From an uncultured Nitrososphaerota archaeon (lineage in GTDB: Archaea; Thermoproteota; Nitrososphaeria; Nitrososphaerales; Gagatemarchaeaceae), in NCBI GenBank assembly GCA_963718895.1, contig CAVRAG010000008.1, forward strand, positions 192,001-256,000: a stretch of 64,000 bases of DNA, given 5' to 3'. The first letter of the stretch is position 1, and the number at the start of each line of letters is the position of its first letter. Under the pieces are notes generated by a model. It was given only the letters and a program-made list of their open reading frames with translations. It was not told the origin of the DNA and did no database searches. The position numbers and the translations under genes were made by a program. Positions 37,959-60,571 of this stretch are shown one piece after another.

Positions 37959-38733
37959 CTCTTTACTCCGGGCCACGGGAGCCTACAGGTTCTACGAGAA
38001 CAGGCTGAGCTGGCAGGTCGAGGACGGACCCATTCCGAGTCACATCGGGATCATCCTCGACGGAAACAGGAGGTGGGCCCAGGACCGGAGGTATGCAGTG
38101 GACGTGGGCCATGCCCAGGGCGCCGACGTCGTCGAGAAGCTCCTCGACTGGTGCCACGACCTCGGGATCAAGTCGATAACGCTCTACGTCCTCTCGACGG
38201 AGAACCTGCACAGGACCGTCGAGGAGGTTCAGGAGCTCTTCAGGCTCATCGAGCAGAGGCTGACCAACCTCCTCGAGGACGACCGGATCTACAGCTACCG
38301 GGTCAGGGTGAAGGGGATAGGGAAGTTCGACCTGCTCCCGCAGTCCCTGCTCAGCATCCTACGCGAGGTTGAGGAGAAGACGGCGGCGTACGACGGCCAC
38401 TTCCTCAACATAGCGATAGCCTACGGAGGCAGGGCCGAGATCACGGACGTCGTGAAGTCGATCGCAGAGGACGTGAAGAACGGGACCCTTGCCCCCGAGG
38501 CCATCAGCGAAGAGACTATAGCGGGGAGGCTGTACACCTCACACCTCCCCAACCCCGAACCCGAGCTGATCATAAGGACCTCGGGCGAGGAGAGGATGAG
38601 CGGCTTCCTTCTGTGGCAGGGCGCCTACAGCGAGCTGATCTTCATGGACGTCTATTGGCCCGCGTTTAGAAAAATTGATTTGTTGCGCGCAATACGTACG
38701 TACCAAAAGCGGAAACGAAGGCTAGGTAGATAA
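37942..38733 (+). CDS. uppS: Polyprenyl diphosphate synthase (cis-prenyltransferase) with a recoded 3' end
   Basis: HIGIILDGNRRWA, STEN, YGGRAEI and RTSGEERMSGFLLWQ motifs; codon usage changes abruptly after about 38653. Confidence 0.95.
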   Translation: MTQVLDSLLRATGAYRFYENRLSWQVEDGPIPSHIGIILDGNRRWAQDRRYAVDVGHAQGADVVEKLLDWCHDLGIKSITLYVLSTENLHRTVEEVQELFRLIEQRLTNLLEDDRIYSYRVRVKGIGKFDLLPQSLLSILREVEEKTAAYDGHFLNIAIAYGGRAEITDVVKSIAEDVKNGTLAPEAISEETIAGRLYTSHLPNPEPELIIRTSGEERMSGFLLWQGAYSELIFMDVYWPAFRKIDLLRAIRTYQKRKRRLGR

Positions 38734-39145
38734 TCAACGCCTGAACAACCTCTGATGTACTCGTCAACTATCCCCCTGTTAACAGGGGGGCCATTCGAGA
38801 TGACAAAATCAGACTCGGCGCCTCTTATCCCGGGCATGAATCCTCTCATCAATCGAAGATAGCCGATGACAGGTTGCCCTCCCTAACTACGAGCCAGGAG
38901 CCCCGAGGTGTTCGCATTGGTTTTTCCAACAGGATAACTCCAGCCAGCTTGATCATGCCTTCATCATACATTTCTATTCTCAGTCGGGGGTACCAATGAT
39001 TGCCCGGTCCCAGTAACGGATGCTCGCGGCCACCAGAAAGATAGACACGCCCTCTGTTGTAACCTATGGTCCCCTCTCCAGCGACAAGTGCGCCAATCCA
39101 AGCGCGTTCCCATTGAGAAAGGTCCTTCACTGCTCGCTTGGCCAA
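38652..39145 (-). mobile_element. Free-standing single-motif LAGLIDADG homing endonuclease (HE1; 1-nt frameshift near 38872)
   Basis: ERAWIGALVAGEGTI motif and YPRLRIEMYD strand; the frame-corrected continuation YLRLMRGFMPGIRGAESDFVI fits the C-terminal helices; lower GC than flanks. Confidence 0.75.
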
Positions 39146-39194
39146 AGCTTCTATCTCAAGAGATTTCCATTCCTAGGTCTTATGAACACCCACG

Positions 39195-39289
39195 TTCATT
39201 GGATCTCTACTCGAGCCTCTTTCCGCAAGATAGATCTCCTCCGCGCCCTAAGGACCTACCAGAAGAGGAAGCGCAGGATGGGAAGGTGG
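39195..39289 (+). pseudogene. Displaced, decaying second copy of the uppS 3' end (probably the original)
   Basis: Encodes FRKIDLLRALRTYQKRKRRMGR with GC-rich codons; degenerate FMDxYWP-like sequence upstream; TGG where the stop is expected. Confidence 0.85.
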
Positions 39290-39295
39290 CGCGGC

Positions 39296-40046
39296 CTAGA
39301 TCAGGTTCACGAGGAAGCCCACCAGGAAGCCGAGGAAGATGCCGATGTAAGTTACTCTCTGCATGGCGTGGTCCGAGTCCCTGAACATGGACTTGAACAT
39401 GGGAAGTATGGCGTAGAGAATCGCTCCTATCGCCAGTCCGTCGAAGAGCACCGTGAACGCGCCCGAGCTATAGAAGTACCCGACGGCGCCGCCGAGGATC
39501 GTCGGCACGCCGCCGACCAAGAAGAAGGTTGCCATCTCCCAACCGTTCCTGTCCGACCGGCCGAGGAAGGGCGACGCGATCGGAAACCCCTCCGTGATGT
39601 TCTGCATCACGAAACCCACGAGCACCACCAGCGCCGCGCCCGAGAACCCGATGCTCACCGCCAGCGCGCCGAAGACTAGACCCTCTGTGAGGTTCTGGAA
39701 TCCTATTCCCGATGCGATGATAAGGGAGGTCTGAGAGGGACCAAGACCGGTCTTCTTCCTGTGCTCGCTGTAGTAGAGTCCCAGGAATCCAATCCCCAGG
39801 GCCGCGGTGAAGATGCCGTCGTAGTAGGGTGAGGACCCGAGCCCATAGAGGGAGCCGTTGTACATTATGGTCGCCGCATTCCCCCAGACGTCCCCTAGGA
39901 GGAAGATCGAGTATCCCAATCGCGACAGCGAGCAGCGCCTTGTTGGCCATGTCGCTAGTGCGCTTGCGGAGGACTATCGGGAGCGAGATGAGGATCGAGA
40001 GGCCCATCACCGCCGAGAGCAGGATGGTCTCGAGGAAGCTCACCAT
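39296..40046 (-). CDS. ZIP family metal transporter (frameshift near 39912)
   Basis: GIGFQNLTEG and MQNITEG TM4/TM5 motifs. Confidence 0.85.
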
Positions 40047-40057
40047 AAGCCATGCCC

Positions 40058-40113
40058 ATAACATATGTTATATTTAATATGAACGATGTTAACGATAACA
40101 ACTAACAGTGTTA
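40058..40113. promoter_or_regulatory. Two TAACA/TGTTA palindromes in a divergent promoter
   Basis: ATAACATATGTTAT (perfect, 40058-40071) and TAACA-G-TGTTA (40103-40113). Confidence 0.65.
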
Positions 40114-40153
40114 TTAACAGGGGACACGGATTGATTGCGGGGAAGCTGGCGTA

Positions 40154-40927
40154 ATGGCGATGAATCAGGCCGGGATCAAGAGCGAAGAGAGGCTCATACC
40201 GATAATCAGGGCGGCGCTTGCGAAGAGATTGGCTTCGGAGGGGTTCAAGGTGAAGGAGATCGCTGGAGCCCTTAACGTGACCCCCGCCGCCGTGACCCAG
40301 TACGTCAAGAGCAGGCGAGGAACGAACATAATGTCCGTTGGGAAGGTCGATCAGATCGTAGACCCGCTCGCCGACAAGGTCGCCAAGCGCATCCGTTCAG
40401 GCTCGGGCGGGATAAAGACCGTGGAGCTGCTCGAGACGGCGCGCCAGGTCATGGTCATGAACGCCGGCAAGGAGATAGTCGCCAAAGGTCCGGAGGGCCC
40501 TGAAAAGCATCGCTCGCTCGAGCTACTTAGGGCGCGGCTCCAGCTCGAGCTGGGGGCGGCGGAGAACTACCTCGAACTGGCCAACAAAACCGGTGACGAC
40601 CACACCAAGCTCCTTCTCAGGATGATAGCCTCGGACAGCATCAGGCATGCGGACGTCGTCTCGCAGGTGATCTCCTGGCTGGAGGCGGAGAGCGGGCCCG
40701 GGTTCGAGCTCCCTGGGGAGGAGCTGCTGAAGAGCATGCTGGCCCTCGAGGACTCGGCGAACGAGGTCAACCTGCGCGAGAGCATCAAGGTCGGTCACCC
40801 TGTGGCTCGCCTCCTCCTTGAGTGGATAGACATGGACGAGGCGAAGCACGGCAAGATGGTGCTGGGGATGCTCGGTCTGAACAACGCGCGCCCAGCCGGG
40901 CGCGGCGCCCGACCTAGGCGTGGCTAG
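40154..40927 (+). CDS. HTH + ferritin/rubrerythrin-like domain regulator
   Basis: KVKEIAGALNVTPAAVTQYV HTH; paired helices ending in DSIRH and DEAKH. Confidence 0.75.
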   Translation: MAMNQAGIKSEERLIPIIRAALAKRLASEGFKVKEIAGALNVTPAAVTQYVKSRRGTNIMSVGKVDQIVDPLADKVAKRIRSGSGGIKTVELLETARQVMVMNAGKEIVAKGPEGPEKHRSLELLRARLQLELGAAENYLELANKTGDDHTKLLLRMIASDSIRHADVVSQVISWLEAESGPGFELPGEELLKSMLALEDSANEVNLRESIKVGHPVARLLLEWIDMDEAKHGKMVLGMLGLNNARPAGRGARPRRG

Positions 40928-40986
40928 CGCTGCCCGACTCGGCCAAGACAAACCATTATAATCTCTCAGCTGAAGAGGTCGATGAA

Positions 40987-41514
40987 ATGAAGATAATCCT
41001 GGGCACCTTCAAGGACAACGCCGACGAACTGGCCGAGTTCCTTGAGCCGAGAGTGGGCGCCAAACCGCAGGTGAGTGGAGCGGAACTTACCGTCGAGGAC
41101 GATTCGTTGAAGAAGACCGTGAAGGTACGGCACGTCAAGACGTACGTAAAGCGGTTCCTCTGGAAGAAGGGAGAGAGGAAGAACTACAGGGTCCTGGTCC
41201 AGGGCAAGGAGCTGAGACTGATAGAGCTCGAACCGTCCGAGGCCGAGGAGGAGGAGAGGAAGAAGCTGGAGGAGAAGGAGAAGGAACGGGCAAAGAAGGA
41301 GGAATCCGTCAAGGAGGAGGAGCCCGTCGTGAAGCAGCAGGAACCTGAGACGAAGAAGGAGGAAGTCCCGCAGCCGGAGGAGGCGAAGCCCGAGCCTGCC
41401 GCCTTGGAGGAAGAAGAGAAGCCCGCCGCCCCGAAGGAGACTAGGAAGAGGGCGAAGAAGTCGACGAAGAAGAGCGCCGAGAAAGCGCAGCCTGCCGCTT
41501 CTCCCTCGACCTGA
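40987..41514 (+). CDS. eL22-like ribosomal protein with a long E/K/P-rich tail
   Basis: ELAEFLEPRV...RHVKTYVKRFLWKKGERKNYRVL parallels eL22 FEQFLQERI...RYLKYLTKKYLKK...LRVV. Confidence 0.65.
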   Translation: MKIILGTFKDNADELAEFLEPRVGAKPQVSGAELTVEDDSLKKTVKVRHVKTYVKRFLWKKGERKNYRVLVQGKELRLIELEPSEAEEEERKKLEEKEKERAKKEESVKEEEPVVKQQEPETKKEEVPQPEEAKPEPAALEEEEKPAAPKETRKRAKKSTKKSAEKAQPAASPST

Positions 41515-41866
41515 CGCGTCCCAGCTCCGCGAGGTAAGCCCGCAGGGAAGTCCTCGCCCCCCGCAACGACTCGAGCCCTTCAGCCGTCTTCCGTGACTGA
41601 ACCAAGACGCCTGCTCGCCTCATCTGCTCGAGGGCGGTTTCGAGGAACTCCTCAGGCCGCTTGGACCTAGGCAGCTCCGTGAAGGCGCCGGGCCTCTCTG
41701 TGCCGAGCCTCAGCTTCAGTTTGGCCACAGCCCTCTCGGTCCTGGCGTAGATGACCCAGATGTCATTCTCCGCCGGCGAACCTCCGACTGCGCTGCCGAG
41801 CGAATCGGTGAGAGCGGCAATCTCGACCTTCAGGTCGTCCGATTGCAACCGGGCTCTTCGCCGCAT
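41441..41866 (-). CDS. Hypothetical protein
   Basis: 141-aa helical ORF filling the gap between genes. Confidence 0.55.
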   Translation of the reverse strand: MRRRARLQSDDLKVEIAALTDSLGSAVGGSPAENDIWVIYARTERAVAKLKLRLGTERPGAFTELPRSKRPEEFLETALEQMRRAGVLVQSRKTAEGLESLRGARTSLRAYLAELGRVRSREKRQAALSRRSSSSTSSPSS

Positions 41867-41948
41867 GTTGTAGTCGTGCCGGAGACCCCGGCTATTTTGA
41901 TTTTCCAGTCAGAACCTTATTAAATCCCAGAACCGACGGGCGGCCAAG

Positions 41949-42632
41949 TTGCCCCCCAGGAAGGAAGCTCGCAGGATAATCGGAGGGTGTTTTGTTAAGC
42001 TTGGCGGGCTGATGGAACTAGGGCGTCTGGCCTGTGCCCTTGAGCGGGCGCAACTTCCGATCTTCATGTCGAAGGTAGGCCAGAAGACGAGGCTATCGGT
42101 CCAGAACGACCTGTTCATGGGGGTGCCGATCTTCTACTATGCAGAAGCAGACAAGGGAGGGGAGTTCCTTGCATACAGGAACGCGGGCGAGATAGAGGAG
42201 GTGCAGCTCGTCGAGTCTGCGTCGACCCCGTCCTACATCTACTCGCCGATCATCCACGTACTGAAGATGCCCAGCATCCTCGAGCACAAGCGGGAGTTCC
42301 ACCAAAAGTTCCTGGCCGCAGAGGTCGCAGACCTCGCTTCCCTCGTGAAGCTGGCCACCTACAAGATGCTCTACGAGGAGCCGCCCCTTCCGCTGTACTC
42401 CTTCAAGAACGGGACGAGCTGGATAGTGGGTTCATTCGCCCGTCTGGACGACTTCGAGGAGGCGTCGCTGTTCTTCTACACGAGGATGAAGGAGGAGCCC
42501 TCCATGGGGTTCGTGAAGTACTCGCCGGCGAACATAGGCGACACGAGCTTCAGCAAGAGGACAGACGAGCACGGCTTCTACTACGTCAAGGTCATCAAGC
42601 TGGCGGAGAAACACCCGCTGGTGGAGTTCTAG
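41949..42632 (+). CDS. Hypothetical protein, translationally coupled to pyrF
   Basis: Strong coding-type codon bias; stop overlaps the pyrF start. Confidence 0.75.
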   Translation: MPPRKEARRIIGGCFVKLGGLMELGRLACALERAQLPIFMSKVGQKTRLSVQNDLFMGVPIFYYAEADKGGEFLAYRNAGEIEEVQLVESASTPSYIYSPIIHVLKMPSILEHKREFHQKFLAAEVADLASLVKLATYKMLYEEPPLPLYSFKNGTSWIVGSFARLDDFEEASLFFYTRMKEEPSMGFVKYSPANIGDTSFSKRTDEHGFYYVKVIKLAEKHPLVEF

Positions 42633-43366
42633 TGCGGTTCGGGGACAGGCTGAGAGACTCCTCGAAGAAACACGGAAGCAGGATCATCCTTGCCCTGGAC
42701 GTCACGGGACCCCAGGCCACGAGGGCGGCCAGGGCCGAGTCGCTGCTCCGCGAGCTCGGCGACTCCCTGGCTGGCGTCAAGGTCAACTTCCAGCTCCTCC
42801 TCCCTCAGGGACTGCAGGGTCTGGCGGGGGTGGTCAAGGTCTGCTCCGAGAAGGGGATTCCCCTGATCGCGGACATCAAGCTCAACGACATCGAGTCGAC
42901 GAACCTCGAGACGGTAGAGATGCTGTTCGGCGGCGGATTCGATGCGGTGATCGCCAACCCGTTCACCGGCCACAACGAGGGGCTCTCCAAGGTGATAGCG
43001 AGGGCCAAGGCGCTCGATAAGGGCGTGATACTCCTGGTGTACATGAGCCATGCCGGCGCCGAGGAGGGGTACGGGCTCAAGGTCGGCGAGGAGCCGATGT
43101 ACATGCTCTTCGCAAGGAAGGTGCGGGACTGGGAGGCAGACGGCGCCATCGTCTCGGCGAAGTCGCTCGACATAATCAGGGAGGTGAGGAGGACCCTCGA
43201 CCCCTGGCAGGTCATCCTGAGCCCAGGCATCGGCTTTCAGGGTGGCGAGGCGGATCGGGCGGTCAAGGCAGGGACCGACTTCGCCATCGTCGGCCGTTCG
43301 ATAATAGACGCCAAGACCCCCCGGGCGATGCTCCGGGAGCTCAACCTCTCGGTCACCGATTCCTGA
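42632..43366 (+). CDS. pyrF: Orotidine 5'-phosphate decarboxylase
   Basis: ILALD, ADIKLNDI, SPGIGFQGG and IVGRSI motifs. Confidence 0.93.
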   Translation: MRFGDRLRDSSKKHGSRIILALDVTGPQATRAARAESLLRELGDSLAGVKVNFQLLLPQGLQGLAGVVKVCSEKGIPLIADIKLNDIESTNLETVEMLFGGGFDAVIANPFTGHNEGLSKVIARAKALDKGVILLVYMSHAGAEEGYGLKVGEEPMYMLFARKVRDWEADGAIVSAKSLDIIREVRRTLDPWQVILSPGIGFQGGEADRAVKAGTDFAIVGRSIIDAKTPRAMLRELNLSVTDS

Positions 43367-43775
43367 GCGAGTCTTCGGCTGCGCGGAGGAGCATCGTCGA
43401 GTTCGCGTAGGTGACCACCTTGAGCGCCTCCTCGTGGCCGAGCCAGGTGTAGTCCCTGTGCTCGAACGAGAGGACGACCTTGTCCTCCTTCGACTCTGCC
43501 AGGAAGAAGGTTACTTCCTTGTGGACCGTCCTCCCGTCCCGCTTGTAGTAGTACTCGATGACCTTCCTGAACCCTGCGACGGGGACGATGTTAACCAGTC
43601 CGGTCTCCTCGCGCACCTCGCGGAGCATGGTCTGCTCGGGAGTTTCGCCTTCCTCGATGTTCCCCTTCGGGAAGTCCCAGTGTCCGGCGGGATACTTCAA
43701 GAGGAGGTAGCGTCTGCCCGCCGGCGTCTCGTGGAAGACGAGGGCCCCGGCCGAGCGCTCCTCGGGGTGGCTCAA
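43353..43775 (-). CDS. Nudix hydrolase (Ap4A hydrolase-like)
   Basis: WDFPKGNIEEGETPEQTMLREVREETG Nudix box; LSFEH. Confidence 0.9.
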   Translation of the reverse strand: MSHPEERSAGALVFHETPAGRRYLLLKYPAGHWDFPKGNIEEGETPEQTMLREVREETGLVNIVPVAGFRKVIEYYYKRDGRTVHKEVTFFLAESKEDKVVLSFEHRDYTWLGHEEALKVVTYANSTMLLRAAEDSLRNR

Positions 43776-43815
43776 GGGCTCCGCCCTGATCCGGCCGCGC
43801 GGGCGCCCACGGGGG

Positions 43816-46518
43816 TCAAGCCTGGACGGCAGGATTGATTCTCCGCCTCATGTAGACGAGTCCGGCGAAGGCGATGAGAACCGCGATCACTATGGGGATG
43901 GTGTACCTCGTGGTTACATCGACCCCTACAGTGACGGACTGCTTCGGGGCCACCCCGTTGAGGGAGAACCCCTGGTAGTGGAAGCTGAGCTGGGACGAGC
44001 TGGTCTCGAATGTTAGGCCCGTCGAGGTCACGAGGGTGACCTGGACGGTCTGGTTGGCGTCGGGCCCCAGTGAGGGCAGCGATACGGTCACGGTCCGCCC
44101 TGAGACCTGTGCCCCCGAGACCACGGTCAGCCCGGACGGGAGCGTGAACGTGTAGGTCAGGTCCGAGACGGGGACGCTCGCCGTGTTCGCCAGGGTTATC
44201 GAGAGCGTGAAGTCATGTTCCTCTTCGGGGGTCGGCGGGCTGGTCGAGACGGTGGCTGTGACCGGCTTGAAGACCTCCATGTACGCAGTGGAGGAAGTGA
44301 GCGTGGCCGTCAGTCCGCCGTACACGAGGGAGACGGTGGCCGGGGACGCTGATGAGTTACCGGAAGCAAGGCTGGTCAGCGCGACTGTGTAGTTGAAACT
44401 CTCGGATTGCTTCGGGGCCAGTGTCGCGTAGGTCTTGACGGTTGTTGAGCCGCCTGGGATGGAGTCGAAAATGTCCTGAGTCGAGCTGAGGGTTGCGTTG
44501 AAGACGGGGCCCGACCCCAGGTTGGTCATGCCCAGAGACACAGAGGAGGTCATCCCAGGGAAGCCCTCGCCCAGCCCGAACGACTTGGTGAGGACCATCC
44601 CGGCCGGAATCACGAATGCCCCCCCGAAGGTGTGGAGCGTCGCGCCCTCGAACGTGGTAGCGACCGATCCTGGCGGGATGACGAAGTTGTCCTGGCTGAA
44701 CCTCAATTGCAGCGTGTTGAGCTGCGCGTTCTGCGTGGTGAGGCTGGCGACGGTCATCGTGTACGTGCTCCCGGAGCAGCTGCCCGTGGAGTTTCCCTTG
44801 ATGACCGTACAGGAGACGCCTGACGGTAGCACGTCGGTCCCGGTGACCGACCCCGAGGTCGCCGAACCCTTGTTCGAGAAGGTGTAGGTCACGTCGAGGA
44901 GTCGCGATTGGATCGAGCCTGCGGTTAGGGTTTCATTCGTCGCCAGCTGGATGAAGGGGATGACCATCGCCGAATGGGAGAACAGGAGAGAGACCGAGTT
45001 CGAGGTTATGTTCACAGTCTGCTGGGCGGAATTCGTGAACACGACCGGAAAGGTCTGAGTGAAGTTCGTCCGTGCGAGATTGGTCAACGTGACTGGAATG
45101 TTCACGGTCTGAGAGCCTCCCGCCGGCAGGCTCTGGATCGAGGTGCCCCCGACCCGCACGTTGATCGCAGGCGAGTTTCCGCTGTTTGTCAGCGTCACTG
45201 TGTAGTTTCCGGCCGTCCCGAGCGGTGCGCCCGAGGAGATCGAGGGCCGGGCTGTCACGACTAAAGCCGGACCCACGTTGTTGATCTGCAGGACGGCCTG
45301 GTTGAGCGTCACCCCGCTGCGATAGCTGGACCCTGAGAGCGTATACAGAAAACTGGCCCTCGACGCAGGGACGGTGACCTGTGTGCTTGAACCGGACACG
45401 ACCTGGAGAAAGTACGACTTTGTGACGTTCTGCCCAGCGCTGACAAGGGGAATCGTGAAGCTGTAGTTTCCGCTCACGAACTTGAAGACGCTCGAGTACG
45501 ACTGCCACCAGTTGTCGTTGACGGTGACGTTCTGGATTGAGCCGGTCGCGGCCGTGTCCTTGATGACTATCGTCACGGCGAGGGACTGATTCGCCGTCAG
45601 GGTTCCACGGTCGAACTCGCGGTACGCGATCGCCGTCGGCGCCAGGGAGGTCACGGTGGCGTTGGGCCTAACGACAGCCCCCGGACTCACGCTCAGCGTG
45701 TAGGTGCCGCTGAAGGCGGAGGCCACGTTGGCGACGGTCGCCTTGGAGTCGCTCGACTGGATCACCCCGTCGAGGGAGTGGATGACTACCTCGCTGGATG
45801 ACGAGGACGTCGATGTGGTGAGGTTGCCACCGGAGTTTGAGAGGATCCCAGGCAGATTGATCGCACCGCTCGAAGTGATGATGCTCGATGACGCGGCGCC
45901 GATCGTTATCGAGTGACTGAAACCAGTCCCGTTGTTGGAACCCGAGAGCGAGATGGAGGGCATCGCCAGTCCTGTGAGCGTCGCCTCGGTTACGAAGGTC
46001 GAGAATCCTTTCATCGCGGTCGGGAGGAGCCTGAAGAGCACCGGCGCCGCGACCCCGACGAAGTTGACTGGTGCGAAGTAGACGTAAGACCCGGACCCGG
46101 ACGAGACGAGCGTAAAGCCGGTGGCGAACCGACTGGCGAAGTAGGAGACCAGCGGCGAAGCTGCGGAGGCGCTGGAGGCGTTCACCGTGAGGAAGAGGCC
46201 CTGGGCGGGCATCGACGGGACCTTGAGCACGTTGTATCCGTCGAGACCGAAGACCTGGAAGTCCGAGACCGCCGACTGGGTGCTCATCGCGAGGAGCCGG
46301 TAGGAGCTAAGCCCCGCCGAGGCCTCGGCTGCGGTCAGGTTCGCCGGCGCTGAGCTCAGCCGGTCCATGGTCATGAACCAGTAGGCGCTCGAGCCCGCTG
46401 TATAGACATCGACCTTCTCCGAGTACTGACTCTGGGCGCTGACAGGGGCCAAGACGAGGACCGGAGCCAGAGCGAGAGAGAGGACTAACGCCAGCACAAT
46501 TGTCTCTCCGGCTTTCAT
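43816..46518 (-). CDS. Large secreted S/T-rich multi-Ig-like (DUF11/CARDB-type) surface protein
   Basis: Signal peptide, repeated TxTLTNSG beta-sandwich units, many N-x-S/T sites, C-terminal TM followed by RRR. Confidence 0.75.
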   Translation of the reverse strand: MKAGETIVLALVLSLALAPVLVLAPVSAQSQYSEKVDVYTAGSSAYWFMTMDRLSSAPANLTAAEASAGLSSYRLLAMSTQSAVSDFQVFGLDGYNVLKVPSMPAQGLFLTVNASSASAASPLVSYFASRFATGFTLVSSGSGSYVYFAPVNFVGVAAPVLFRLLPTAMKGFSTFVTEATLTGLAMPSISLSGSNNGTGFSHSITIGAASSSIITSSGAINLPGILSNSGGNLTTSTSSSSSEVVIHSLDGVIQSSDSKATVANVASAFSGTYTLSVSPGAVVRPNATVTSLAPTAIAYREFDRGTLTANQSLAVTIVIKDTAATGSIQNVTVNDNWWQSYSSVFKFVSGNYSFTIPLVSAGQNVTKSYFLQVVSGSSTQVTVPASRASFLYTLSGSSYRSGVTLNQAVLQINNVGPALVVTARPSISSGAPLGTAGNYTVTLTNSGNSPAINVRVGGTSIQSLPAGGSQTVNIPVTLTNLARTNFTQTFPVVFTNSAQQTVNITSNSVSLLFSHSAMVIPFIQLATNETLTAGSIQSRLLDVTYTFSNKGSATSGSVTGTDVLPSGVSCTVIKGNSTGSCSGSTYTMTVASLTTQNAQLNTLQLRFSQDNFVIPPGSVATTFEGATLHTFGGAFVIPAGMVLTKSFGLGEGFPGMTSSVSLGMTNLGSGPVFNATLSSTQDIFDSIPGGSTTVKTYATLAPKQSESFNYTVALTSLASGNSSASPATVSLVYGGLTATLTSSTAYMEVFKPVTATVSTSPPTPEEEHDFTLSITLANTASVPVSDLTYTFTLPSGLTVVSGAQVSGRTVTVSLPSLGPDANQTVQVTLVTSTGLTFETSSSQLSFHYQGFSLNGVAPKQSVTVGVDVTTRYTIPIVIAVLIAFAGLVYMRRRINPAVQA

Positions 46519-51795: not shown

Positions 51796-52657
51796 CTAGA
51801 GGAGCACGGCTACGCACCCGAGCACGAATACGACAGCGAGGTACGGGCTGGAGAACTTGAAGGCGAGGAAGGCGTTGGCCTTGGTGGGCGCTCGGAGCAG
51901 CTTGATGTTCGTCGCGAGCAGCCCCGCGTCGAACGCGACCGCTCCCACGAGGTAGACCAGCCCTCCTGCGCCGCTCAGGTAGAAGTAGAAGAGGAGGCTG
52001 ATCGGAATCAGGAGCAACGTGTTCGTGACTATGAACTGCGCCGCCCTCTCCTTGCCGACGACCGAGGGGAGCATGGGTATGCCCGCCGCCGCATAGTCCG
52101 ACTCCGTTATGACGGCGAGGCTCCAGAAGTGGCTCGGAGTCCAGACGAAGACGAGGGCCGCGAGCACCCACGCCGTCGCGGGGTCCGAGAGCGTGACCGC
52201 GTACCAGCCTGCGAGGACGGCACAGCTGCCGGCGAACCCGCCCAGCACGATGTTCCACGTAGTGCGCGGCTTCAGCCAGATGGTGTAGATCTCGATGTAG
52301 ATCGAGCGCGCCAAGGCCGATGAAGAACGTGGCGTAGATGTTCAGGGTGAGGAACGCGACGAGCATCCCCATAGCCAGGAGCCCAACGGCGAACGCGAGC
52401 GCGTGCGACTTTGGTATCTGGTTAGTGGGCAGCGGCCTCCCTTTGGTGCGCTTCATCATGGAATCGACGCCGATTTCGAGGTAGCTGTTCGTGGCGAGGG
52501 CGCCGGCCGAGGCGAGGGTGCCCCCAGCCAGAAGGCCGGCGAGGGTGAGCGCCGAGGGTATCGCTCTGGCCGCTATTATCGCGGATGCGAGGGCCACGAG
52601 GACCAAGAGCGGGATGATTCTGGGCTTGACCAGCCGCACATAATCCCTTAGAGTCAA
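51796..52657 (-). CDS. cyoE: Heme O synthase (frameshift near 52305)
   Basis: LVKPRI, MKRTKGRPLP, NIVLGGFAG, WTPSHFWSL and DYAAAGIPMLP motifs. Confidence 0.9.
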
Positions 52658-52712
52658 TAGCCTATCGTGTCCCTAGACCTCGCCGACGGCCGCTGGGTGA
52701 TGATTTAAACAA

Positions 52713-53573: not shown

Positions 53574-53635
53574 CGATGACCTCGTTGCGAAGCGTCCGAG
53601 CAGGGCTTAAATCCGTTCCGACGGGTTCGCCTCAA

Positions 53636-54931
53636 TCACGGGGGACCTTCGGCAAGGGGCACGGGCTGCTGCTTCAGCTTGATGACAGGTCCGAGTACGA
53701 TCCAGACACCGGCCAGAGCCGCTATGATTCCACCCAAGACCATGGTGCTGACCACTCCAAAGGAGGGCAGGGATGCGAGGGTGCCGCCGATTATGGCCCC
53801 TACGGGGATTGTCCCCCAGACGATCACCCGCATGGTCGCGTTCATCCGGCCCTGAAGTCGGTCCGGAGTGATCGCCTGCCTGAGGCTGACCTGGCTGATA
53901 TTGTAGATCGGCGAGCTCGTGCCAATGACGAAGGCCACGACGGCCGGCAGCAAGAACGGAGAACCGTAGCTCGCGAGGGGGTAGAGGACGGCGAGACCCG
54001 CCATGCTGACCGAGACCGCGAGACCCCGGCCGAACCCCAGCGCGGTCGTGAACCTCTTTGCGACAAGCGCTCCGACAAGGAACCCTGCTGCCCCGATGGT
54101 CCCGAGAAGACCCCACTCGAAGTAGGAGTAATGAAGACGTCCGAAGACGAACGCGAGGATTGCCGGCCCCACTATGTATGAGCCAAGATTGCTGGTGGCA
54201 GTGCATCCCGCTATTCTTGTCAGAAGGGGGTTTCCGAGCACGATGTGTATCCCTTCCCTCATCTCTCCGAAGAAGTCGGGTTGCGGATCTCCGGGCCTTG
54301 GCACCTTCCTGGGCTCTGGAGTCCGGATGTCGAGCAGAGCAACGGCGGCAGCGAGATAGCCGACGGCATCGGCGGCGCAGGTCAGTGCGGCACCGACTAT
54401 CTTCGGGGATATGACATCGGTCAGCGCCTGAAACGCCCCTCCAGCGATGCTGGGACCGACCACAGTAGCGCCCGAGGCGCTGAGCTGCAGTTTCTGGTTC
54501 CCCTCGATGAGGTCCTTCCTTTCGATCAGAATCGGAAGGTACGCCTGGTAGGAGATGTCGAAGAAGACCGAGAACACCCCGTTCACCAGTGCGATCACGT
54601 AGAGCTGGTCGAGGGCGAGCACCCCGAAGACGGCAGCGAGGGGGATCGTCATGAGGGAAGCCATCCTCCCCAAATTGCAGATGACCATGATCTTCTTCTT
54701 CCGGAACCTGTCGACCCAGACGCCCACGAAGAGCCCTAGTAGCGGATAAGGTAGAATCGCCAAAGCGGTAAGGAGGCCGACGCCGAAAGCCCCGGCGTTC
54801 AGCAGAGAATAGGCCAACACAGGAAGGGCGTACGTGCTGAAGTTGCTCCCGAATGAGCTGACGGTCTCGGAGAACCAGAGCCTCGTGAAGTCCCTGTGGC
54901 GCCAGAGGTTCCCGCCGAGGCTGAGCTTCAA
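53636..54931 (-). CDS. MFS transporter
   Basis: GVWVDRFRKK motif A, QAITPDRLQGR, about 12 TMs. Confidence 0.9.
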   Translation of the reverse strand: MKLSLGGNLWRHRDFTRLWFSETVSSFGSNFSTYALPVLAYSLLNAGAFGVGLLTALAILPYPLLGLFVGVWVDRFRKKKIMVICNLGRMASLMTIPLAAVFGVLALDQLYVIALVNGVFSVFFDISYQAYLPILIERKDLIEGNQKLQLSASGATVVGPSIAGGAFQALTDVISPKIVGAALTCAADAVGYLAAAVALLDIRTPEPRKVPRPGDPQPDFFGEMREGIHIVLGNPLLTRIAGCTATSNLGSYIVGPAILAFVFGRLHYSYFEWGLLGTIGAAGFLVGALVAKRFTTALGFGRGLAVSVSMAGLAVLYPLASYGSPFLLPAVVAFVIGTSSPIYNISQVSLRQAITPDRLQGRMNATMRVIVWGTIPVGAIIGGTLASLPSFGVVSTMVLGGIIAALAGVWIVLGPVIKLKQQPVPLAEGPP

Positions 54932-55062
54932 CGAGGCCGGGCTCTTTGGCTATGGCTATTATTCTTGCGAGCCGGGCTGGATTCTGGCGGAGTCAGGGCG
55001 AGTCCGGCCGAGGGCTCTGTCGAGAGGAGGGGTGCCTATATGCGGACTTGGAGATATTAGTC

Positions 55063-56007
55063 ATGGGACCTCCGAGACACTACAGGCACAGGACGCTCGA
55101 GGAGCGATTGAAGATTCACGCTGAGGTGGCGACGCTTCGCGGTTCGGGCATGACCGTGAAGGAGGTCGCCGACGCGCTTGGAATCAGCAGGCGTGACGTC
55201 AGTTACTGGACGAGGATGAACAAGCCGTCTCGCACCGTCTACAATCCGGACCTCACACCGAGACCTGAGCTCGCGTACCTCGTGGGAGCCTATCTCGGGG
55301 ATGGAAGGACTGCCGGACCGAAGGACAAGAAAGTGAGGTTCAACCTCGCCGACCAGGAGTTCGCGGATCAGCTTAACGAGCTAGTTGCCAAGGTCATCGG
55401 CGCCAGACTGAAGACGGTCCCCGTGGAGGAGGGGTTCCACTCTGTGAGCTACGACTGCGCGGTCCTCTACGATTTTCTCCAACAACCCCTTTCCGCCCAG
55501 ATACCTCTCGCCGAGTCATTCCCGGCAGAGTTTCTTCGCGGATTCTTCGATGCTGAGGGATACGCGTCTCAGACTATCTGGCCAGGGTCGAATGCCCTGA
55601 CAGCCATATGTGTAGGAGCAGCTAACTGCAACCTTGACTACCTCGACCTTGCCCGTCGATTGCTAGCGACCCTCGGGATACCTTCTGAAATCAGGATGAC
55701 GAACAAGGCAGGACAACCCATGGAGATACGCGGCCGAACCTACATCCGCAAGAGGAATGTGTTTCATGTGCGGATCAATGAGGCGGACTACGTCGAGAAG
55801 TTTCGCGATCGAGTGGGTTTCTCCGTTCCCGAGAAGAAGCAGAAACTCGCGGACCTCGTTGCAATAGTGTCCATTCCCGACGAATGGGATCGATACGACC
55901 GCTTCACTGACTTGTATGAGAAGAAGAAGCGCAAATGGATGCGACGAGGCGACGCGAGCAGCAGCAACCATTCTAGCGCTAGCGCTGAAAATAATTCTGC
56001 GCGGTAA
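55063..56007 (+). mobile_element. Free-standing HTH + double-motif LAGLIDADG homing endonuclease (HE2)
   Basis: MTVKEVADALGISRRDVSYW HTH; LAYLVGAYLGDG and FLRGFFDAEG motifs; no intein splice motifs. Confidence 0.85.
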
Positions 56008-56027
56008 ATTATTCCGATAGGAATAAG

Positions 56028-56170
56028 TCCCGCGGGTCGGATTCGAGCCGACGACACTCCGGTTTCTGTGGCCTGAGTAGGCTGGACGGGTCAGCCGATG
56101 GCCGACCACTACAGCCGGAAGCTCTTGGTTCCGCCTTTTTAGGGGACCTACCAGGCTGAGCTACCGCGGG
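56028..56170 (-). tRNA. tRNA-Tyr(GUA) with two introns (24 nt in the D-loop, 56125-56148; 45 nt at 37/38, 56064-56108)
   Basis: Acceptor CCCGCGG/CCGCGGG-A with C1-G72; anticodon stem TCCGG/CCGGA; BHB CTGT/ACAG at the canonical intron; 74-nt exon total. Confidence 0.92.
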
Positions 56171-56196
56171 ACGTGACCACGCCCGGCACGCATATC

Positions 56197-57243
56197 TTAA
56201 GCGTTTCCGGCGAGATGCGACTCGGATGAGTTTCGGCCCATGGAGATTGGCAGTCCAAGCGCCAGAGCGACGCGCCTGGCGTCGTCCGGCGACGATGCGC
56301 CCTTCACGAGCATCCCTCCGGACCTGAAAAGCGACACCTCGAGGTCCCCGACCCTCGTCATCAGTATCGAGTCGCCCATGCGCTTGGTCCCGTCAACAAG
56401 GCGCCTCGAGAGGCGGTCGAAGGACCGGGGAGGGAACGCGCCGCTCACGTAGAGCTCGTTGCCGCCGCAGAGCTCGACGACCCTGCTGCCGCGGCGGGGA
56501 TGCCGGCCAGACCCGCAGGCCCCGCAGTCGGGACGCCGCTCGAACCGGACCGTGTGCGACTCCATCCTCCGTCCGTCGAAGACGAGCATCGCACCCAGCA
56601 GCCCCGACTCCATCCCCGAGAGGATCTTCACCGCCTCGATCGCCCCGACCGACCCTATGTAGGAGGTGAGCGCGCCCAGCACGCCCACGACCTCGCAGGC
56701 GGGATAGTCCTCGTCCCTCGCCCCCGGGAAGACGCATTCGAAGCAGGCGGTCCTCGGGGACCAGAAGACCCCGGCCGAGGCCTCCCAGCCCAGTCCGCCG
56801 GTGTGGAGCAGCGGTATCCCCCGCGCGACGCAGGCCGCGTTGAGCGCGTACCTCCCCGCGAAGTTGTCGAGGCAGTCGACCGCTATGTCGGCATCGCGAA
56901 TCAGGCGCGGGGCGTTCCCGGTCCCGAGGCTCGCGGCGTGATAGTCCACCACAAGCCCCGGCACCCGCTCCCTCAGGTACCTGGAGACGACCTCTGCCTT
57001 GGACATCCCGACGTCGGCAAGCGTGTAGGTCGGCTGTCTGTGGAGGTTCTCGGCGGAGACGACGTCACGGTCGACGAGGGTCAGCCTCCCGACCCCGGCG
57101 ATGGCGAGGTTGACCGCCACGGAGGACCCGGTGCCTCCGAGGCCAACCACCACCGCGTGGGACCCGGCGAGGCGCCCCTGCCCCTCCCCTCCGAACCCTT
57201 CCAGGGCGATCTGCCTCGAGAAATACAGGCGGTCGTAGGACAA
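56197..57243 (-). CDS. MoeB/ThiF/UbaA family E1-like adenylyltransferase
   Basis: YFSRQ, VVGLGGTG, DRDVVSAENLHRQ, CFEC and CGAC motifs. Confidence 0.9.
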   Translation of the reverse strand: MSYDRLYFSRQIALEGFGGEGQGRLAGSHAVVVGLGGTGSSVAVNLAIAGVGRLTLVDRDVVSAENLHRQPTYTLADVGMSKAEVVSRYLRERVPGLVVDYHAASLGTGNAPRLIRDADIAVDCLDNFAGRYALNAACVARGIPLLHTGGLGWEASAGVFWSPRTACFECVFPGARDEDYPACEVVGVLGALTSYIGSVGAIEAVKILSGMESGLLGAMLVFDGRRMESHTVRFERRPDCGACGSGRHPRRGSRVVELCGGNELYVSGAFPPRSFDRLSRRLVDGTKRMGDSILMTRVGDLEVSLFRSGGMLVKGASSPDDARRVALALGLPISMGRNSSESHLAGNA

Positions 57244-57301
57244 CTGGGAAAAAAGCGAATGGAACTGCTTTTAAAGTCCGCGGGCCGGGCGTGACAAGAA
57301 C

Positions 57302-57739
57302 ATGAGCGAGAAGGCGGTCAAGAAGGTCCCTGCCAAGAAGAAGGCTGTCAGGAAGGCTCCGGCCAAGAAGAGAGCGGCCGCGGCCAAGAAGGAGGAGGCG
57401 AAGGAAGGGGCCGCGAAGGAGATCATTGAGCTAACCCCCGCGCCATCGCCGGTCGTCATGGTGAGGCACGAGTACGGCATGCAGGAGAGGGCCGCGCGGG
57501 GATACTCGCTCGGCGAGCTCGCGTCGGCTGGAATAACGTTCGTCGTTGCCAAGGGCATAGGGGTCCCGCTGGACCTCAGGAGGAGGAGCGCGCTGGACGG
57601 CAACGTCGCGCTGCTGAAGGGGTGGTACGTGCCCGCCCCGAAGAAGGCGAAGGTCGCGGCCGCGGAGAAGGAGGAGAAGCCGGCGAAGAAGGCGGCCAAG
57701 AAGCCCAAAAGAGCCGCCAAGGCGAAGAAGGAAGAGTAG
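57302..57739 (+). CDS. rpl13e: Ribosomal protein eL13 with K/A-rich N- and C-terminal extensions
   Basis: RAARGYSLGELASAGI...GVPLDLRRRS...NV core. Confidence 0.85.
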   Translation: MSEKAVKKVPAKKKAVRKAPAKKRAAAAKKEEAKEGAAKEIIELTPAPSPVVMVRHEYGMQERAARGYSLGELASAGITFVVAKGIGVPLDLRRRSALDGNVALLKGWYVPAPKKAKVAAAEKEEKPAKKAAKKPKRAAKAKKEE

Positions 57740-57746
57740 CCGTCGG

Positions 57747-58670
57747 TCAGTCCTTCGTCCTTTCGTTGTGAAACAGATACTGCTGGGCGTAGCCAGCGAA
57801 CTCACCGAAGTAAGCGCGGGCGCTCGCCGAGAGGCGGTCGTAGGTCGCCAGCGAGAGGCTCGTCCGGCCCGAGACGTTTGAAGCAAGCCTCTCTCTGAGG
57901 TCCTCGGCGAAGAGGTGCGGGTAGTAGTCCCCCAGGACCCTCGCTACCCAGACGTCTATGGGGAACGCCGAGTCCTTGTCGCAGGAGAAGAGCAGGACGC
58001 AGTCGGCGACCTTGGGCCCGATGCCCATCAGCGTCTTCCTCTCAGGGAGCTCCTCGATCAGCAGGTCCCTGGCCCTGGGGTAGTCGAAGAGGCGCAGCTC
58101 GTCCAGGTTCACCCTGCCCAGATAGACGGACTCGGCTATGGACTTCACGAACTTCGCCCTGTACCCGAGGCCGCATGCGACCAGGTCTGGGAGCTCGGCC
58201 TCGGCGAGCCTCTCGGGGCTGGGGAAGAGCGAGTAGGTCTCTCCCTCGAAGGCGACGGGCTCGCCAAGCCGCTTGCAGACGTTCGAGACCATCCCCCTAA
58301 TCCGGGGGATGTTGGAGTTCGTGGCTATGGCGAAGGAGATGAGGCACTCCCAGACCTCCTGCTTCAGCAGGCGGAGCCCGTAGAACTTCTGGACCGCTTC
58401 GGTGATCCTCTCGTCCTTCATTATCGAGGCGAGGATCCGCTCGAGGTCCACTCCTAGCCCCAGGTAGTTGTAGACGGTGCGGCTGTTGAGGGCGTCCGAG
58501 GACGAGACGCAGACGAGGGCCGCGCCCTCCTGCTTGAGCTTGACGACGCCTGGGCCAAGGACCCCGTACCACCACTCGCCCCTCTCGTTCCAGCGGAAGG
58601 ACTGGCCGGACTCCAGCGTGTAGCGGAGGTTGAAGGGGAGGCCCTCGGTGTTGATGGTGAACTCGCCCAT
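57747..58670 (-). CDS. OGG1-type 8-oxoguanine DNA glycosylase
   Basis: TLESGQSFRW, ECLISF, GLGYRA, GIGPKVADC, FPIDVW and GYAQQYLF motifs. Confidence 0.9.
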   Translation of the reverse strand: MGEFTINTEGLPFNLRYTLESGQSFRWNERGEWWYGVLGPGVVKLKQEGAALVCVSSSDALNSRTVYNYLGLGVDLERILASIMKDERITEAVQKFYGLRLLKQEVWECLISFAIATNSNIPRIRGMVSNVCKRLGEPVAFEGETYSLFPSPERLAEAELPDLVACGLGYRAKFVKSIAESVYLGRVNLDELRLFDYPRARDLLIEELPERKTLMGIGPKVADCVLLFSCDKDSAFPIDVWVARVLGDYYPHLFAEDLRERLASNVSGRTSLSLATYDRLSASARAYFGEFAGYAQQYLFHNERTKD

Positions 58671-58807
58671 CCGCCCTTCTCGAGGGTGGACTCTCTATAA
58701 AAGAATCCAAGCATGGCTCGAGAAGGCTCAGCCCAGACAGTCGTGATGTGGATTGGCGCTTAAATGCGGTGCGAAGTTCGAGTCCGACGACTCTTGGAGG
58801 GACTGGC

Positions 58808-59926
58808 CTGACGGAGGCATCCGACGCTACACCAAGCGGCAAGGAAGGAGCACAGCAGACCTCGACGGACTTCACCGAGGATGAAAGGGAAGTCCTGGAT
58901 TTTCTGGCGAACTCGAAGAGGGTCGACCTCAGGTGGCTGAACGAGGACAGGAAAACGAAGATCAAGACGGTAATCGACGGGCTGCACAACGGCAAGAAGC
59001 TCTCGCTCCTGCAGATCTCGAAAGAGGTCGGGAGGTCCTACATGGCGATCTGGGGCCTGTGCCGAGCGCTGGAGATTCGGACGAGGAGCGTGGCCGAGGC
59101 CCAGAGCAACTCCGCCGAGTCCAGGTCGAAGCACAAGCGGAGGCCGTTCGGCGGGACCGAGGAGGATCGAGCGTACATGCTCGGGTTCAAGAACGGCGAC
59201 CTGACGGCGTGGCAGGTGAGCGGGACAGCGGTGATGGTAACGTCGACAACAACGCACCCCGCGTTCGCGGAGCTCTTCCGCGAGCTCTTCCGAGAATATG
59301 GGCACGTCTACGAGTACCCGATGTACGAGGAGGGGAAGGGATACAAATGGAAGCTCGCGGTGAGGCTCGACAACAGCTTCAGGTTCCTTCTAAAACCGGC
59401 CGTCGAAGCGGTCCAGGAGCTCTCGGCAGAGAGGTCGACGTACCTCAGTTGGCTCGCGGGTCTAGTCGATAGCGACGGGAACATATACGTTTCAGGAGGT
59501 CGCGGCTCTCCAAGGATACGCGTTGGCATTTACAACAGTGATGTGCCTCTCCTGAAGTCAATCATCACGGAGAGCAGAAAGATCCAATATGATTTCGACG
59601 GACCGTACCTCTTGAAGGAGAAAGGTACCGTTACTCCGTTCGGCATTAGGTACACTAGGGATCTCTGGCATATCGATGTCCAGCAGACCTGGTCGGCGCA
59701 GCGATTACTCCTTGAGCTCCCGATCAGACACGCTGAGAAACTTCGCCGCAAGTCGCTAGGGTTGCAGGTAGGCCGCCGACCTTGGAGCGAGATTGAAGCG
59801 GAGTTCCTGGAACTCAGAAAGGCGATACGGAGAGAAGTTGACGAGTTCCTTGCCGAGGCCGAGGAGCGCTACAGGAACAATCACGGATTTCCGGGCGACA
59901 GCACAAGTACTGAAGATCGCACCTAG
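58808..59926 (+). mobile_element. Free-standing HTH + double-motif LAGLIDADG homing endonuclease (HE3); start uncertain (CTG 58808 or GTG 58748)
   Basis: LSLLQISKEVGRS HTH; AYMLGFKNGDL and SWLAGLVDSDG motifs; LPIRHAEK. Confidence 0.85.
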
Positions 59927-59959
59927 ACCTCAGCGGAAGATAGGAAGTGAGGAGTGGAG

Positions 59960-60571
59960 CTACTTCGATGCCTTCTGGAAGCGCTTCCCCACGTCTTCCC
60001 AGTTGACGACGTTCCACCAGGCCTCTACGTACTTGCCCCTGTCGTTCAGGTACTGGAGATAATATGCATGTTCCCAGACGTCACACCCGAGCAGTATCGG
60101 CAGCTCCGGCAGGTGCATGAAGTTCTGCTTCTCGACCTGGGTCAGGACGAGGGAGTCGATCTCGTGGTCGTAGAGCAGGAGCGCCCACCCAGAACCCTCG
60201 ACCGCCTTCGCGGCGTCGCTGAACTGGGCCTTGAACTTGTCGAAGGACCCGAAGTCCTGGGTGATCTTGTCGGCGAGCTTCCCGGTCGGCGCGCCGCCTC
60301 CTCCCTTCCCCGCGGCGGCCATGTTCATCCAGAAGATAGAGTGCAGCTTGTGTCCGCCGACGTTGAAGGAGAGGTCCCTGAGGGTCCCCTTGATGTCGAT
60401 CTGGAGGGTCCCTGCACGGGCCTTCTCGAGCTTGTCGAGGGCCGCGTTCGCACCCGTCACGTAGGCGTTGTGGTGCTTGTCGTGGTGCAGCGTCATGATC
60501 TGCTTCGAGATATACGGCTCGAGCGCTTCATAGGGATATGGTAACGGTGGCAGCGTGTAGGTCTTTGCCAT
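59960..60571 (-). CDS. sod: Fe/Mn superoxide dismutase
   Basis: LHHDKHH, GHKLHSIFW, GSGW and DVWEHAYY motifs. Confidence 0.97.
   Translation of the reverse strand: MAKTYTLPPLPYPYEALEPYISKQIMTLHHDKHHNAYVTGANAALDKLEKARAGTLQIDIKGTLRDLSFNVGGHKLHSIFWMNMAAAGKGGGGAPTGKLADKITQDFGSFDKFKAQFSDAAKAVEGSGWALLLYDHEIDSLVLTQVEKQNFMHLPELPILLGCDVWEHAYYLQYLNDRGKYVEAWWNVVNWEDVGKRFQKASK

Follow-up and report, generated by a model that had tools for sequence, protein, structure and literature searches.

The locus examined here raises the question of how three LAGLIDADG homing endonuclease (HE) genes came to stand against the 3' ends of conserved genes in an archaeal chromosome when none of them lies in an intron or an intein. 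The genes occur in a stretch of 64,000 nucleotides, here called the window (G000:C8:192001-256000), on a 1.6-Mb archaeal chromosome contig of genome G000. This genome comprises 3.13 Mb in 11 contigs at about 62% G+C, and close homologues are assigned in their source records to Thaumarchaeota or Nitrososphaerales metagenome-assembled genomes. An initial annotation, made from the window alone, placed the three genes tail-to-tail with uppS (HE1), a tRNA-Tyr gene (HE2) and the superoxide dismutase (SOD) gene (HE3), and suggested that each nuclease homes into its neighbour and brings a recoded version of a conserved site. The arrangement is essentially as described. The free-standing status of the genes is also confirmed, as Pfam recognizes no Hint/intein domain and Rfam no group I intron for HE1, HE2 or HE3, and the open reading frames (ORFs) have their own starts and stops. 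We conclude from comparison with related genomes, here numbered G001 onward, that the three are free-standing LAGLIDADG cassettes of two families, placed at conserved-gene 3' ends, that probably are or were mobile between lineages by double-strand-break repair. We assign this reading a probability of about 0.7.

The proposal that a nuclease homed into its neighbour and recoded it is well supported by these comparisons for HE1 and uppS. An insert is present at the same Ala/Phe codon junction in G000, G010, G007 and G002 in an alignment of seven genomes. Comparison with HE1-free G001, G011 and G005 places the insertion point exactly between these two codons (WPA/FRKIDLL). In the HE1-free genomes, uppS runs from TGG CCC GCA straight into TTC CGC AAG and ends in RRMGR or RRLGK. 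In G000, the insert supplies a tail that encodes the same peptide as the native end in AT-rich codons and is in frame with uppS. The remainder of the cassette is HE1 on the opposite strand, and HE1 overlaps the uppS tail. The native tail follows 0.5 kb downstream. It is GC-rich and decaying, and its counterparts in the alignment are the tails that G001 and G011 still use, both ending in RRMGR and a stop codon. Its former TAG stop has become TGG in G000, and the decay is more advanced in G010 and G002. Because four independent assemblies share the insert, an assembly artefact is an unlikely source of the insert and the displaced tail.

The codon usage that first drew attention to the uppS C-terminus is restricted to genomes with HE1 remnants. 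The initial annotation had called this terminus recoded, and the G+C content at third codon positions (GC3) of the last 30 uppS codons of G000 is indeed 0.50, as compared to 0.89 upstream. The corresponding values are 0.47-0.50 in G000, G010 and G007 and 0.80-0.97 in HE1-free G001, G011 and G005. The AT-rich tail thus occurs also in G010 and G007, and an ameliorated copy is found in G002. HE1 remnants are present at the uppS site in 4 of the 41 genomes searched, G000 included (G000, G010, G002 and G007). These four carriers do not form a clade in a quick species tree, where G001 and G011 are sister to G000 and G005 is nested among the carriers. Orthologues of uppS are 76-97% identical across the genus. 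Among G000, G010 and G007, the recoded tails are 95.7%, 94.2% and 98.6% identical, whereas the adjoining 615 bp of the uppS body are only 82.8-85.2% identical. Since the recoded tails are more alike than the gene body and have retained their low G+C content, they point to a common origin of the cassette that would be later than that of the host genes.

HE1 itself is no longer an intact gene as it reads in G000. Its position and LAGLIDADG family agree with the initial annotation, but it does not occupy one open frame. Codons 1-98 (38849-39145) are open and are followed by stops, and the C-terminal part lies in another frame (38652-38852). This part is 67% identical over 33 amino acids (aa) to a full-length relative of 172 aa, P0122 (E = 2e-14), so HE1 must contain at least one frameshift, which would reflect either genuine decay into a pseudogene or possibly a mistake in the assembly. 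HE1 alone is not recognized by Pfam. A profile of 32 family sequences, which includes distant members that supply part of the I-MsoI score, matches I-MsoI with E = 3e-16 (positions 3-119) and I-CvuI with E = 2.5e-9. The family alignment displays the motif AWIGALVAGEG, in which G-E-G is nearly invariant, and 13 of the 32 members match PF00961 while 10 match PF14528. The gene is broken in every carrier at uppS, by the frameshift in G000, by a nonsense codon in G010, by deletion of all but 29 codons in G007 and by scrambling in G002. Intact family members of about 130 aa adjoin tRNA-Ala genes, and HE1 may now be in the decay phase of a homing cycle.

The tRNA-Ala(TGC) gene of related genomes has the same design. 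HE1 homologues are tail-to-tail with this gene in four relatives (G010, G020, G022 and G001), and these carriers occur in both clades of the genus. On either side of each nuclease gene stands a copy of the final 28-33 nt of the tRNA gene, in direct orientation and at a distance of 451-456 bp, or of 927 bp in the case of G001. The T-arm of G004 and G015, two genomes in which the nuclease was not found, recurs unchanged as the displaced copy of G020. The copy in use in G020 has GTGGG/CCCAC in place of GAGGG/CCCTC, together with one changed loop base. This recoding preserves the helix, with the T-stem kept through paired changes. The displaced copy in G022 is decaying.

Two further features of these loci stand apart from the recoding. 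Beside the tRNA-Ala gene of G001 (L179, G001:C6, about 1017-2017), a frame of 295 aa contains two tandem HE1-like domains and resembles a homodimeric LAGLIDADG enzyme whose two subunits have been fused naturally into a single chain. The tRNA-Ala(TGC) T-arm is also unusually variable within one genus, with four stem and four loop versions (L178-L195). One of the loops, TCCGAAT, has a C at the near-universal position 55 and occurs in G013, G003, G021 and G022.

HE2 and HE3 retain intact ORFs, and several observations provide evidence that they still encode nucleases. The HE2 frame opens at TTG 54946 and the gene starts at ATG 55063; its LAGLIDADG_3 score is 56.4 bits against a cut-off of 22.5. 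HE3 scores 18.2 bits, which is below the cut-off of 22.5, and some of its relatives are listed with PF14528 in precomputed annotation. The AlphaFold models have predicted local distance difference test (pLDDT) values of 88 for HE2 and 90 for HE3. Foldseek matches HE2 to I-Tsp061I (1.4e-8) and HE3 to I-Tsp061I, I-DmoI, I-AniI and I-OnuI, and the top matches of the two models to LAGLIDADG enzymes have E values of 4e-7 to 1e-8. The acids that end both motifs are invariant, D80 and E165 in 32 HE2 sequences and D131 and D223 in 36 HE3 sequences. The ratio of nonsynonymous to synonymous divergence (dN/dS) is 0.11-0.33 for HE2 and 0.06-0.35 for HE3. Taken with the invariant acids and the predicted fold, these ratios suggest that both proteins remain active endonucleases.

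Neither gene is fixed at its site, which is the outcome of a comparison across related genomes that the initial annotation had proposed. HE2 lies beside tRNA-Tyr in seven genomes and is absent from the same site, with the same neighbours, in at least eight, including G010 and G021. The latter is the sister of HE2-bearing G003, and this pair displays a clean indel of 978 bp versus 33 bp. HE3 lies between SOD and the OGG-type glycosylase gene in seven genomes, and also in G003 at a contig end. It is missing in 11 genomes, where the SOD-OGG gap is 65-253 bp; these include G010 and the complete genome G007. The surrounding gene order (orf286, MFS, HE2, tRNA-Tyr, ThiF, L13e, OGG, HE3, SOD, transaldolase) is kept within the genus and partly in another genus (G023).

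A comparison of G001 with G011 is informative here, as marker proteins of the two are 96% identical, as against 55% identity for HE2 and 61% for HE3 at the protein level. This difference is concentrated in the C-terminal, target-proximal halves of both nucleases. At the DNA level, only the nuclease C-halves and spacers (572 and 522 bp) cannot be aligned between the two genomes, and the surroundings are 86-96% identical. The N-terminal helix-turn-helix (HTH) halves of HE3 are 85-97% identical between sister species. Approximately unbiased (AU) tests on the HE3 C-half reject the groupings (G001,G011) with p = 7e-6, (G003,G021) with p = 6e-4 and (G000,G001,G011) with p = 3e-4, and none of the three is rejected by the N-half. 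The HE2 C-half likewise rejects (G001,G011) (p = 1.9e-4), and the N-half does not (p = 0.18). For the pair G001 and G011, OGG and SOD have a synonymous divergence (dS) of 0.39, as compared to 2.2 in the HE3 C-half and to 1.6 and 2.7 in the two halves of HE2. This excess of synonymous change rules out mere fast protein evolution. Loss alone would not account for such a mosaic make-up, and we infer repeated gene conversion that enters from the side of the target gene and ends inside the resident nuclease gene. The allele exchange between lineages that the initial annotation had envisaged is thereby supported for HE2 and HE3, from their patchy occurrence at identical sites, the C-halves that reject the species tree and the high dS. 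Contigs of four DNA sequencing runs yielded short exact pieces inside HE2 and HE3, and none that bridges either site.

The SOD gene may carry a similar recoding next to HE3, although the case is less direct than for uppS. The initial annotation pointed to codons ending in A or T in the WEHAYY motif, and these are present in the sequence as TGG GAA CAT GCA TAT TAT (60059-60076, minus strand). In a codon table of 20 genomes, every one of the seven HE3 carriers for which SOD is available has 2-6 changes in the 18-nt core of this motif, as compared to 0-1 among HE3-free genomes in 13 cases of 15, a comparison that amounts to only about three independent contrasts. The changes include Tyr to Phe in four carriers. 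The core has 0-1 change in clade B, G004, G015 and G024, and the non-carriers G010 and G007 have 3 and 5. In six of seven carriers the GC3 of the SOD tail is below that of the upstream sequence, and the last 165 bp of SOD are more diverged among carriers than the first 448 bp. A spacer of 33 bp separates HE3 from SOD. G010, though close to G000, has the SOD tail type of clade B, which suggests an allele replacement. Identity matrices of the SOD 5' and 3' parts were considered as a sign of co-conversion, but their groupings are not clearly different and offer no proof. Immunity of the SOD site is at present a hypothesis, and the homing and recoding proposal is plausible but unproven for HE3.

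Other variation at this site was noted in two places. The G010 SOD gene (L090, G010:C3, 1501-2110) is frameshifted near residue 136. The SOD-OGG spacer of G004 (L071) contains 892 bp of other sequence that resembles a small reverse-strand membrane-protein gene, and that of G007 (L078) contains a 253-bp remnant of it. The site that receives HE3 also receives other cargo.

For the tRNA-Tyr gene, the predicted recoding is unsupported. ARAGORN and Rfam at its gathering threshold found no tRNA in the window, and both missed tRNA-Tyr because of its two introns; the genes called by ARAGORN with long introns allowed were false. The gene was aligned first with 6 and then with 20 relatives. It lies 20 bp from HE2 and has C at position 54 (window 56047) and G at position 57, and the other G000 tRNAs found by ARAGORN have the usual GGTTC T-arm, or A at 54 in tRNA-Thr(GGT). 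The initial annotation read C54 as a T54C change associated with HE2. The C is present as stated, but the link to the nuclease fails, as it is the altered site that occurs equally in nuclease-free relatives. C54 is found in 21 of 21 tRNA-Tyr genes of the family, at least eight of them in genomes without HE2 at the site, and T54 is found in six of six other families of the order. Any connection of C54 with HE2 is therefore limited to one shared event in their ancestry. A displaced tRNA-Tyr 3' end was sought upstream of HE2 by local alignment, and in six of seven genomes the best candidate is no better than those from 300 shuffles. The G001 candidate is marginal (6 of 300 shuffles are as good) and falls inside the HE2 coding region, and it was rejected. 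The tRNA-Tyr gene of many relatives has a third intron, inside the T-loop, for which no consistent link with the presence of HE2 was found.

G000 contains further members of the two HTH-LAGLIDADG families. Two HE3-like genes and one HE2-like gene have open frames, and a broken HE3-like copy and three HE2-like fragments are also present. Convergent members have spacers of 18-77 bp to the next gene. Displaced gene tails were not found within 4 kb of the NuoD, glycoside hydrolase or ABC-2 genes. The broken HE3-like gene is tail-to-tail with a methylmalonyl-CoA mutase large-subunit gene that lies in at least five frame pieces (L161, G000:C1:55000-64000, 4271-6725), just upstream of the gene for the B12-binding subunit. 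The split mutase gene is either a decaying locus or a sign of assembly indel errors. An HE2-like gene elsewhere adjoins two identical 45-aa cupredoxin/COX2-type C-termini that are 3 kb apart (G000:C7:265068-265202 and 268213-268347). Many other LAGLIDADG matches in G000 sit in frames of 1100-1660 aa; these are presumably inteins, and the genome seems to be intein-rich. The EF-2 gene of G000 (G000:C7:787108-788172) matches its family model only from position 364 onward.

The structure of the HE1 cassette shows that a unit of 556 bp entered uppS between Ala and Phe, 22 codons before the stop. Its synonymous AT-rich copy of these 22 codons and the stop keeps uppS whole, and the native tail, displaced downstream, is decaying. 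In a homing cycle, HE1 would have recognized the native sequence that spans the insertion point. The insert would split this site, and the rewritten copy would leave it unrestored, so that carriers would be immune and non-carriers would be cut and converted. The sites that HE2 and HE3 may still cleave would lie within or next to the neighbouring gene's 3' end, and conversion tracts that start at such a cut could overwrite the adjacent half of the resident nuclease gene.

Coordinates of the features of the window discussed in the text (positions within the 64,000-nucleotide window; evidence as recorded).
Feature	Position	Strand	Evidence or remark
uppS (undecaprenyl-diphosphate synthase family)	37762..38733	+	Pfam Prenyltransf 6.4e-74; conserved domain from about residue 98
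HE1, single-motif I-CreI/I-MsoI-like LAGLIDADG gene, frameshifted	38652..39145	-	Family alignment and profile
Recoded cassette-borne uppS tail, 22 codons and stop, FRKIDLLRAIRTYQKRKRRLGR followed by stop	38665..38733	+	
Whole HE1 cassette, 556 bp	38665..39220		Seven-genome MAFFT alignment
Displaced native uppS tail (FRKIDLLRALRTYQKRKRRMGR)	39221..39289	+	tblastn 54% identity over 46 aa, E 9e-12
MFS transporter, divergent from HE2, left edge of HE2 indel	53636..54931	-	Pfam MFS_1 and synteny
HE2-containing segment of G000, unrelated 225 bp instead in G010	54934..56018		blastn G000 vs G010
HE2, N-terminal HTH and double-motif I-DmoI-like LAGLIDADG endonuclease, ORF intact	55063..56007	+	PF14528 3.6e-15
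tRNA-Tyr(GTA), two introns (D-arm, position 37/38)	56028..56170	-	Direct reading and alignment with relatives
Ribosomal protein L13e gene	57302..57739	+	Pfam 8.8e-9
OGG-type DNA glycosylase, divergent from HE3, far edge of HE3 indel	57747..58670	-	Pfam OGG_N, HhH-GPD and synteny
HE3, spacer and last ~10 SOD codons, 66 bp instead in G010	58702..59990		blastn G000 vs G010
HE3, N-terminal helical/HTH region and double-motif LAGLIDADG endonuclease, ORF intact	58808..59926	+	Opens at GTG 58748
Fe/Mn superoxide dismutase (SOD)	59960..60571	-	Pfam Sod_Fe_N, Sod_Fe_C

A number of points weigh against this account. All of the evidence is comparative, and no cleavage, target site or transfer event has been observed. 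The design in which the gene end is replaced is seen only in the HE1 family, with no displaced SOD or tRNA-Tyr end left by HE3 or HE2; for SOD, a tblastn search of the entire window at word size 2, and a further one confined to 4 kb around the neighbouring gene, found no displaced tail beside HE3. Even within the HE1 family, the two tRNA-Ala 3' copies of G001 (a 28-nt repeat) are 100% identical, which is a duplication and not a recoding at that locus. The SOD codon shift could reflect phylogenetic inertia, as the HE3-free genomes are mostly one clade, and G024 is changed just downstream of the WEHAYY core. HE2 and HE3 are in position even in the other genus (G023), where each is about 41% identical to the G000 protein, and old vertical presence followed by several losses can explain where the two genes occur without any gain. 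The absence of HE2 from G021 looks like a deletion rather than an empty site, since the flank retained in G021 is AT-rich, as in its sister G003, which bears HE2. The convergent orientation that the initial annotation had proposed to survey is found in seven of nine family members or remnants in G000, which is not significant alone. The species tree is a quick tree of five markers, four of them from the same region as the window, with the EF-2 marker missing or partial in several genomes, G000 among them, and the clades for the AU tests were chosen after the identity matrices had been inspected. Finally, G000 may be a long-read assembly in which single frameshifts are potential errors, and the mutase gene in at least five frame pieces indicates that the HE1 frameshift, too, may be such an error.

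In one alternative reading, HE2 and HE3 would be domesticated HTH and LAGLIDADG regulators of their neighbours, similar to WhiA and inherited vertically with occasional loss, and HE1 would be an unrelated dead relic. Their synteny across two genera, the ORFs that are intact and under purifying selection in most genomes, the well-conserved N-terminal HTH halves noted above for HE3 and the presence of WhiA among the Foldseek matches are all compatible with such a role. We nevertheless regard it as unlikely. The invariant catalytic acids of HE2 and HE3 are those that WhiA lacks (PMC3384342), and they disfavour the WhiA-like outcome that the initial annotation had named as an alternative. The HTH region is N-terminal rather than C-terminal, both genes are dispensable in close relatives, and broken copies and fragments occur elsewhere in the genome. 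C-halves with a dS of 2 or more between sister species that also reject the species tree are unlike a fixed regulator.

A reading without mobility, in which the uppS tail was duplicated locally, one copy drifted toward AT-rich codons around an ancestral nuclease gene, and the patchiness arose from loss and fast evolution, gains from the fact that HE1 is dead wherever it is seen, that losses are clearly frequent and that the nuclease genes evolve faster than their neighbours. It is nonetheless improbable. G001 and G011 have only the native tail and have it seamlessly, so loss would need precise excision and a swap of tails, and the AT-rich tail is unameliorated and more alike among G000, G010 and G007 than is the adjoining gene. 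The synonymous divergence of the nuclease halves is 4-7 fold above background between sister species, which protein selection cannot produce, and tRNA-Ala loci in both clades of the genus repeat the uppS architecture. We consider it more improbable still that the cassettes were placed by other machinery, for example an integrase or a transposase directed to the 3' ends of genes, with the nucleases as passive cargo. A replaced tRNA 3' end with a displaced partial copy is a classic integrase footprint, but the inserts are 0.45-1.3 kb long and contain a nuclease gene as their sole ORF, with no integrase or transposase. In four of five loci, the repeats are diverged replacement copies and not identical att sites. 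Close relatives of the nucleases were also not found in viral contigs, where a search returned no HE3 relatives, only 23-27% matches to HE2, and no vector. Mobility of the cassettes through double-strand-break repair remains the reading that we prefer.

The closest parallel to the uppS cassette is found in fungal mitochondria, where mobile ORFs (mORFs) form gene hybrids. Such hybrids are described for atp6, atp9, cox2 and nad3 in Glomus (PMC3630166, which also cites the atp6 mORF of Allomyces macrogynus), and C-terminal duplications are described for cob and atp6 in Endoconidiophora (PMC6279837). In these systems, as at uppS, the insertion close to the 3' end of a conserved gene consists of a free-standing LAGLIDADG (or GIY-YIG) ORF together with a diverged, largely synonymous copy of the gene's C-terminal part, in frame with the gene. 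The original C-terminal part follows directly after the insert and resembles that of uninvaded relatives, a pattern read there as horizontal transfer. The systems differ in that the host here is an archaeal chromosome rather than an organelle, the nuclease is antisense and tail-to-tail rather than in phase or downstream, and the targets include a tRNA gene, in which paired changes maintain the T-stem. For the fungal case, cleavage has been demonstrated biochemically according to PMC3630166, whereas the present cassettes are known from sequence comparison.

The initial annotation drew its analogy instead from T4-like phages. The Seg and Mob genes of these phages likewise lie between conserved genes, cut the allele that lacks them and are patchy among relatives. 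The enzymes are of the GIY-YIG or HNH type and not LAGLIDADG, they act during mixed infection, and they are not known to carry a replacement gene end. Free-standing phage endonucleases spread with co-conversion of their flanks (PMC2790892, PMC2330249). The genes described here, in contrast, are LAGLIDADG genes in the cellular chromosomes of separate species.

In archaea, homing endonucleases have been described in introns of rRNA and tRNA genes and in inteins. Three of these enzymes, I-DmoI, I-Tsp061I and PI-PfuI, are the best structural matches of HE2 and HE3 and share their fold, with two motifs that end in acids. HE2 and HE3 differ in lying outside any intron or intein and in their added N-terminal HTH region. 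WhiA/DUF199 proteins share the LAGLIDADG scaffold and an HTH domain, and they match the models with E values of 4e-6 to 5e-4. According to PMC3384342, the catalytic acids are missing from WhiA and its HTH domain is C-terminal, whereas HE2 and HE3 have invariant acids and an N-terminal HTH region and are absent from close relatives. No free-standing LAGLIDADG cassette with a replaced gene end in an archaeal chromosome was found in the literature searched, which included few subscription journals.

These elements appear to persist in cellular chromosomes without an intron or intein, with a replacement gene end that spares the host gene. An architecture so far described mainly for fungal mitochondria is thus found in a second domain of life, at a tRNA gene as well as at a protein gene, and with the nuclease antisense to its host gene. 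Nuclease targets can be predicted at the native junctions of uppS and tRNA-Ala, which offer natural pairs of cleavable and immune sites, and the family supplies compact LAGLIDADG scaffolds of a thermostable lineage, including the 295-aa tandem fusion of G001. The mosaic HE2 and HE3 alleles may serve as a sequence-level marker of recombination between species in a genus of uncultured soil archaea, where it is otherwise hard to measure. A broader picture is conceivable, though we advance it tentatively and hold it to be somewhat less probable than its negation. In that picture, a guild of intron-less and intein-less LAGLIDADG cassettes in soil Nitrososphaerota would invade the 3' ends of essential genes and bring rewritten "immune" ends, through synonymous codons in protein genes and through compensatory stem pairs and near-universal T-loop positions in tRNA genes. 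The C54 shared by tRNA-Tyr genes across the family and the tRNA-Ala alleles with C55 would be scars of this arms race, and the nucleases would retarget themselves by swapping their target-proximal, DNA-binding halves between species. If this picture is true, then homologous DNA exchange between archaeal species would be frequent enough to sustain homing in free-living cells.

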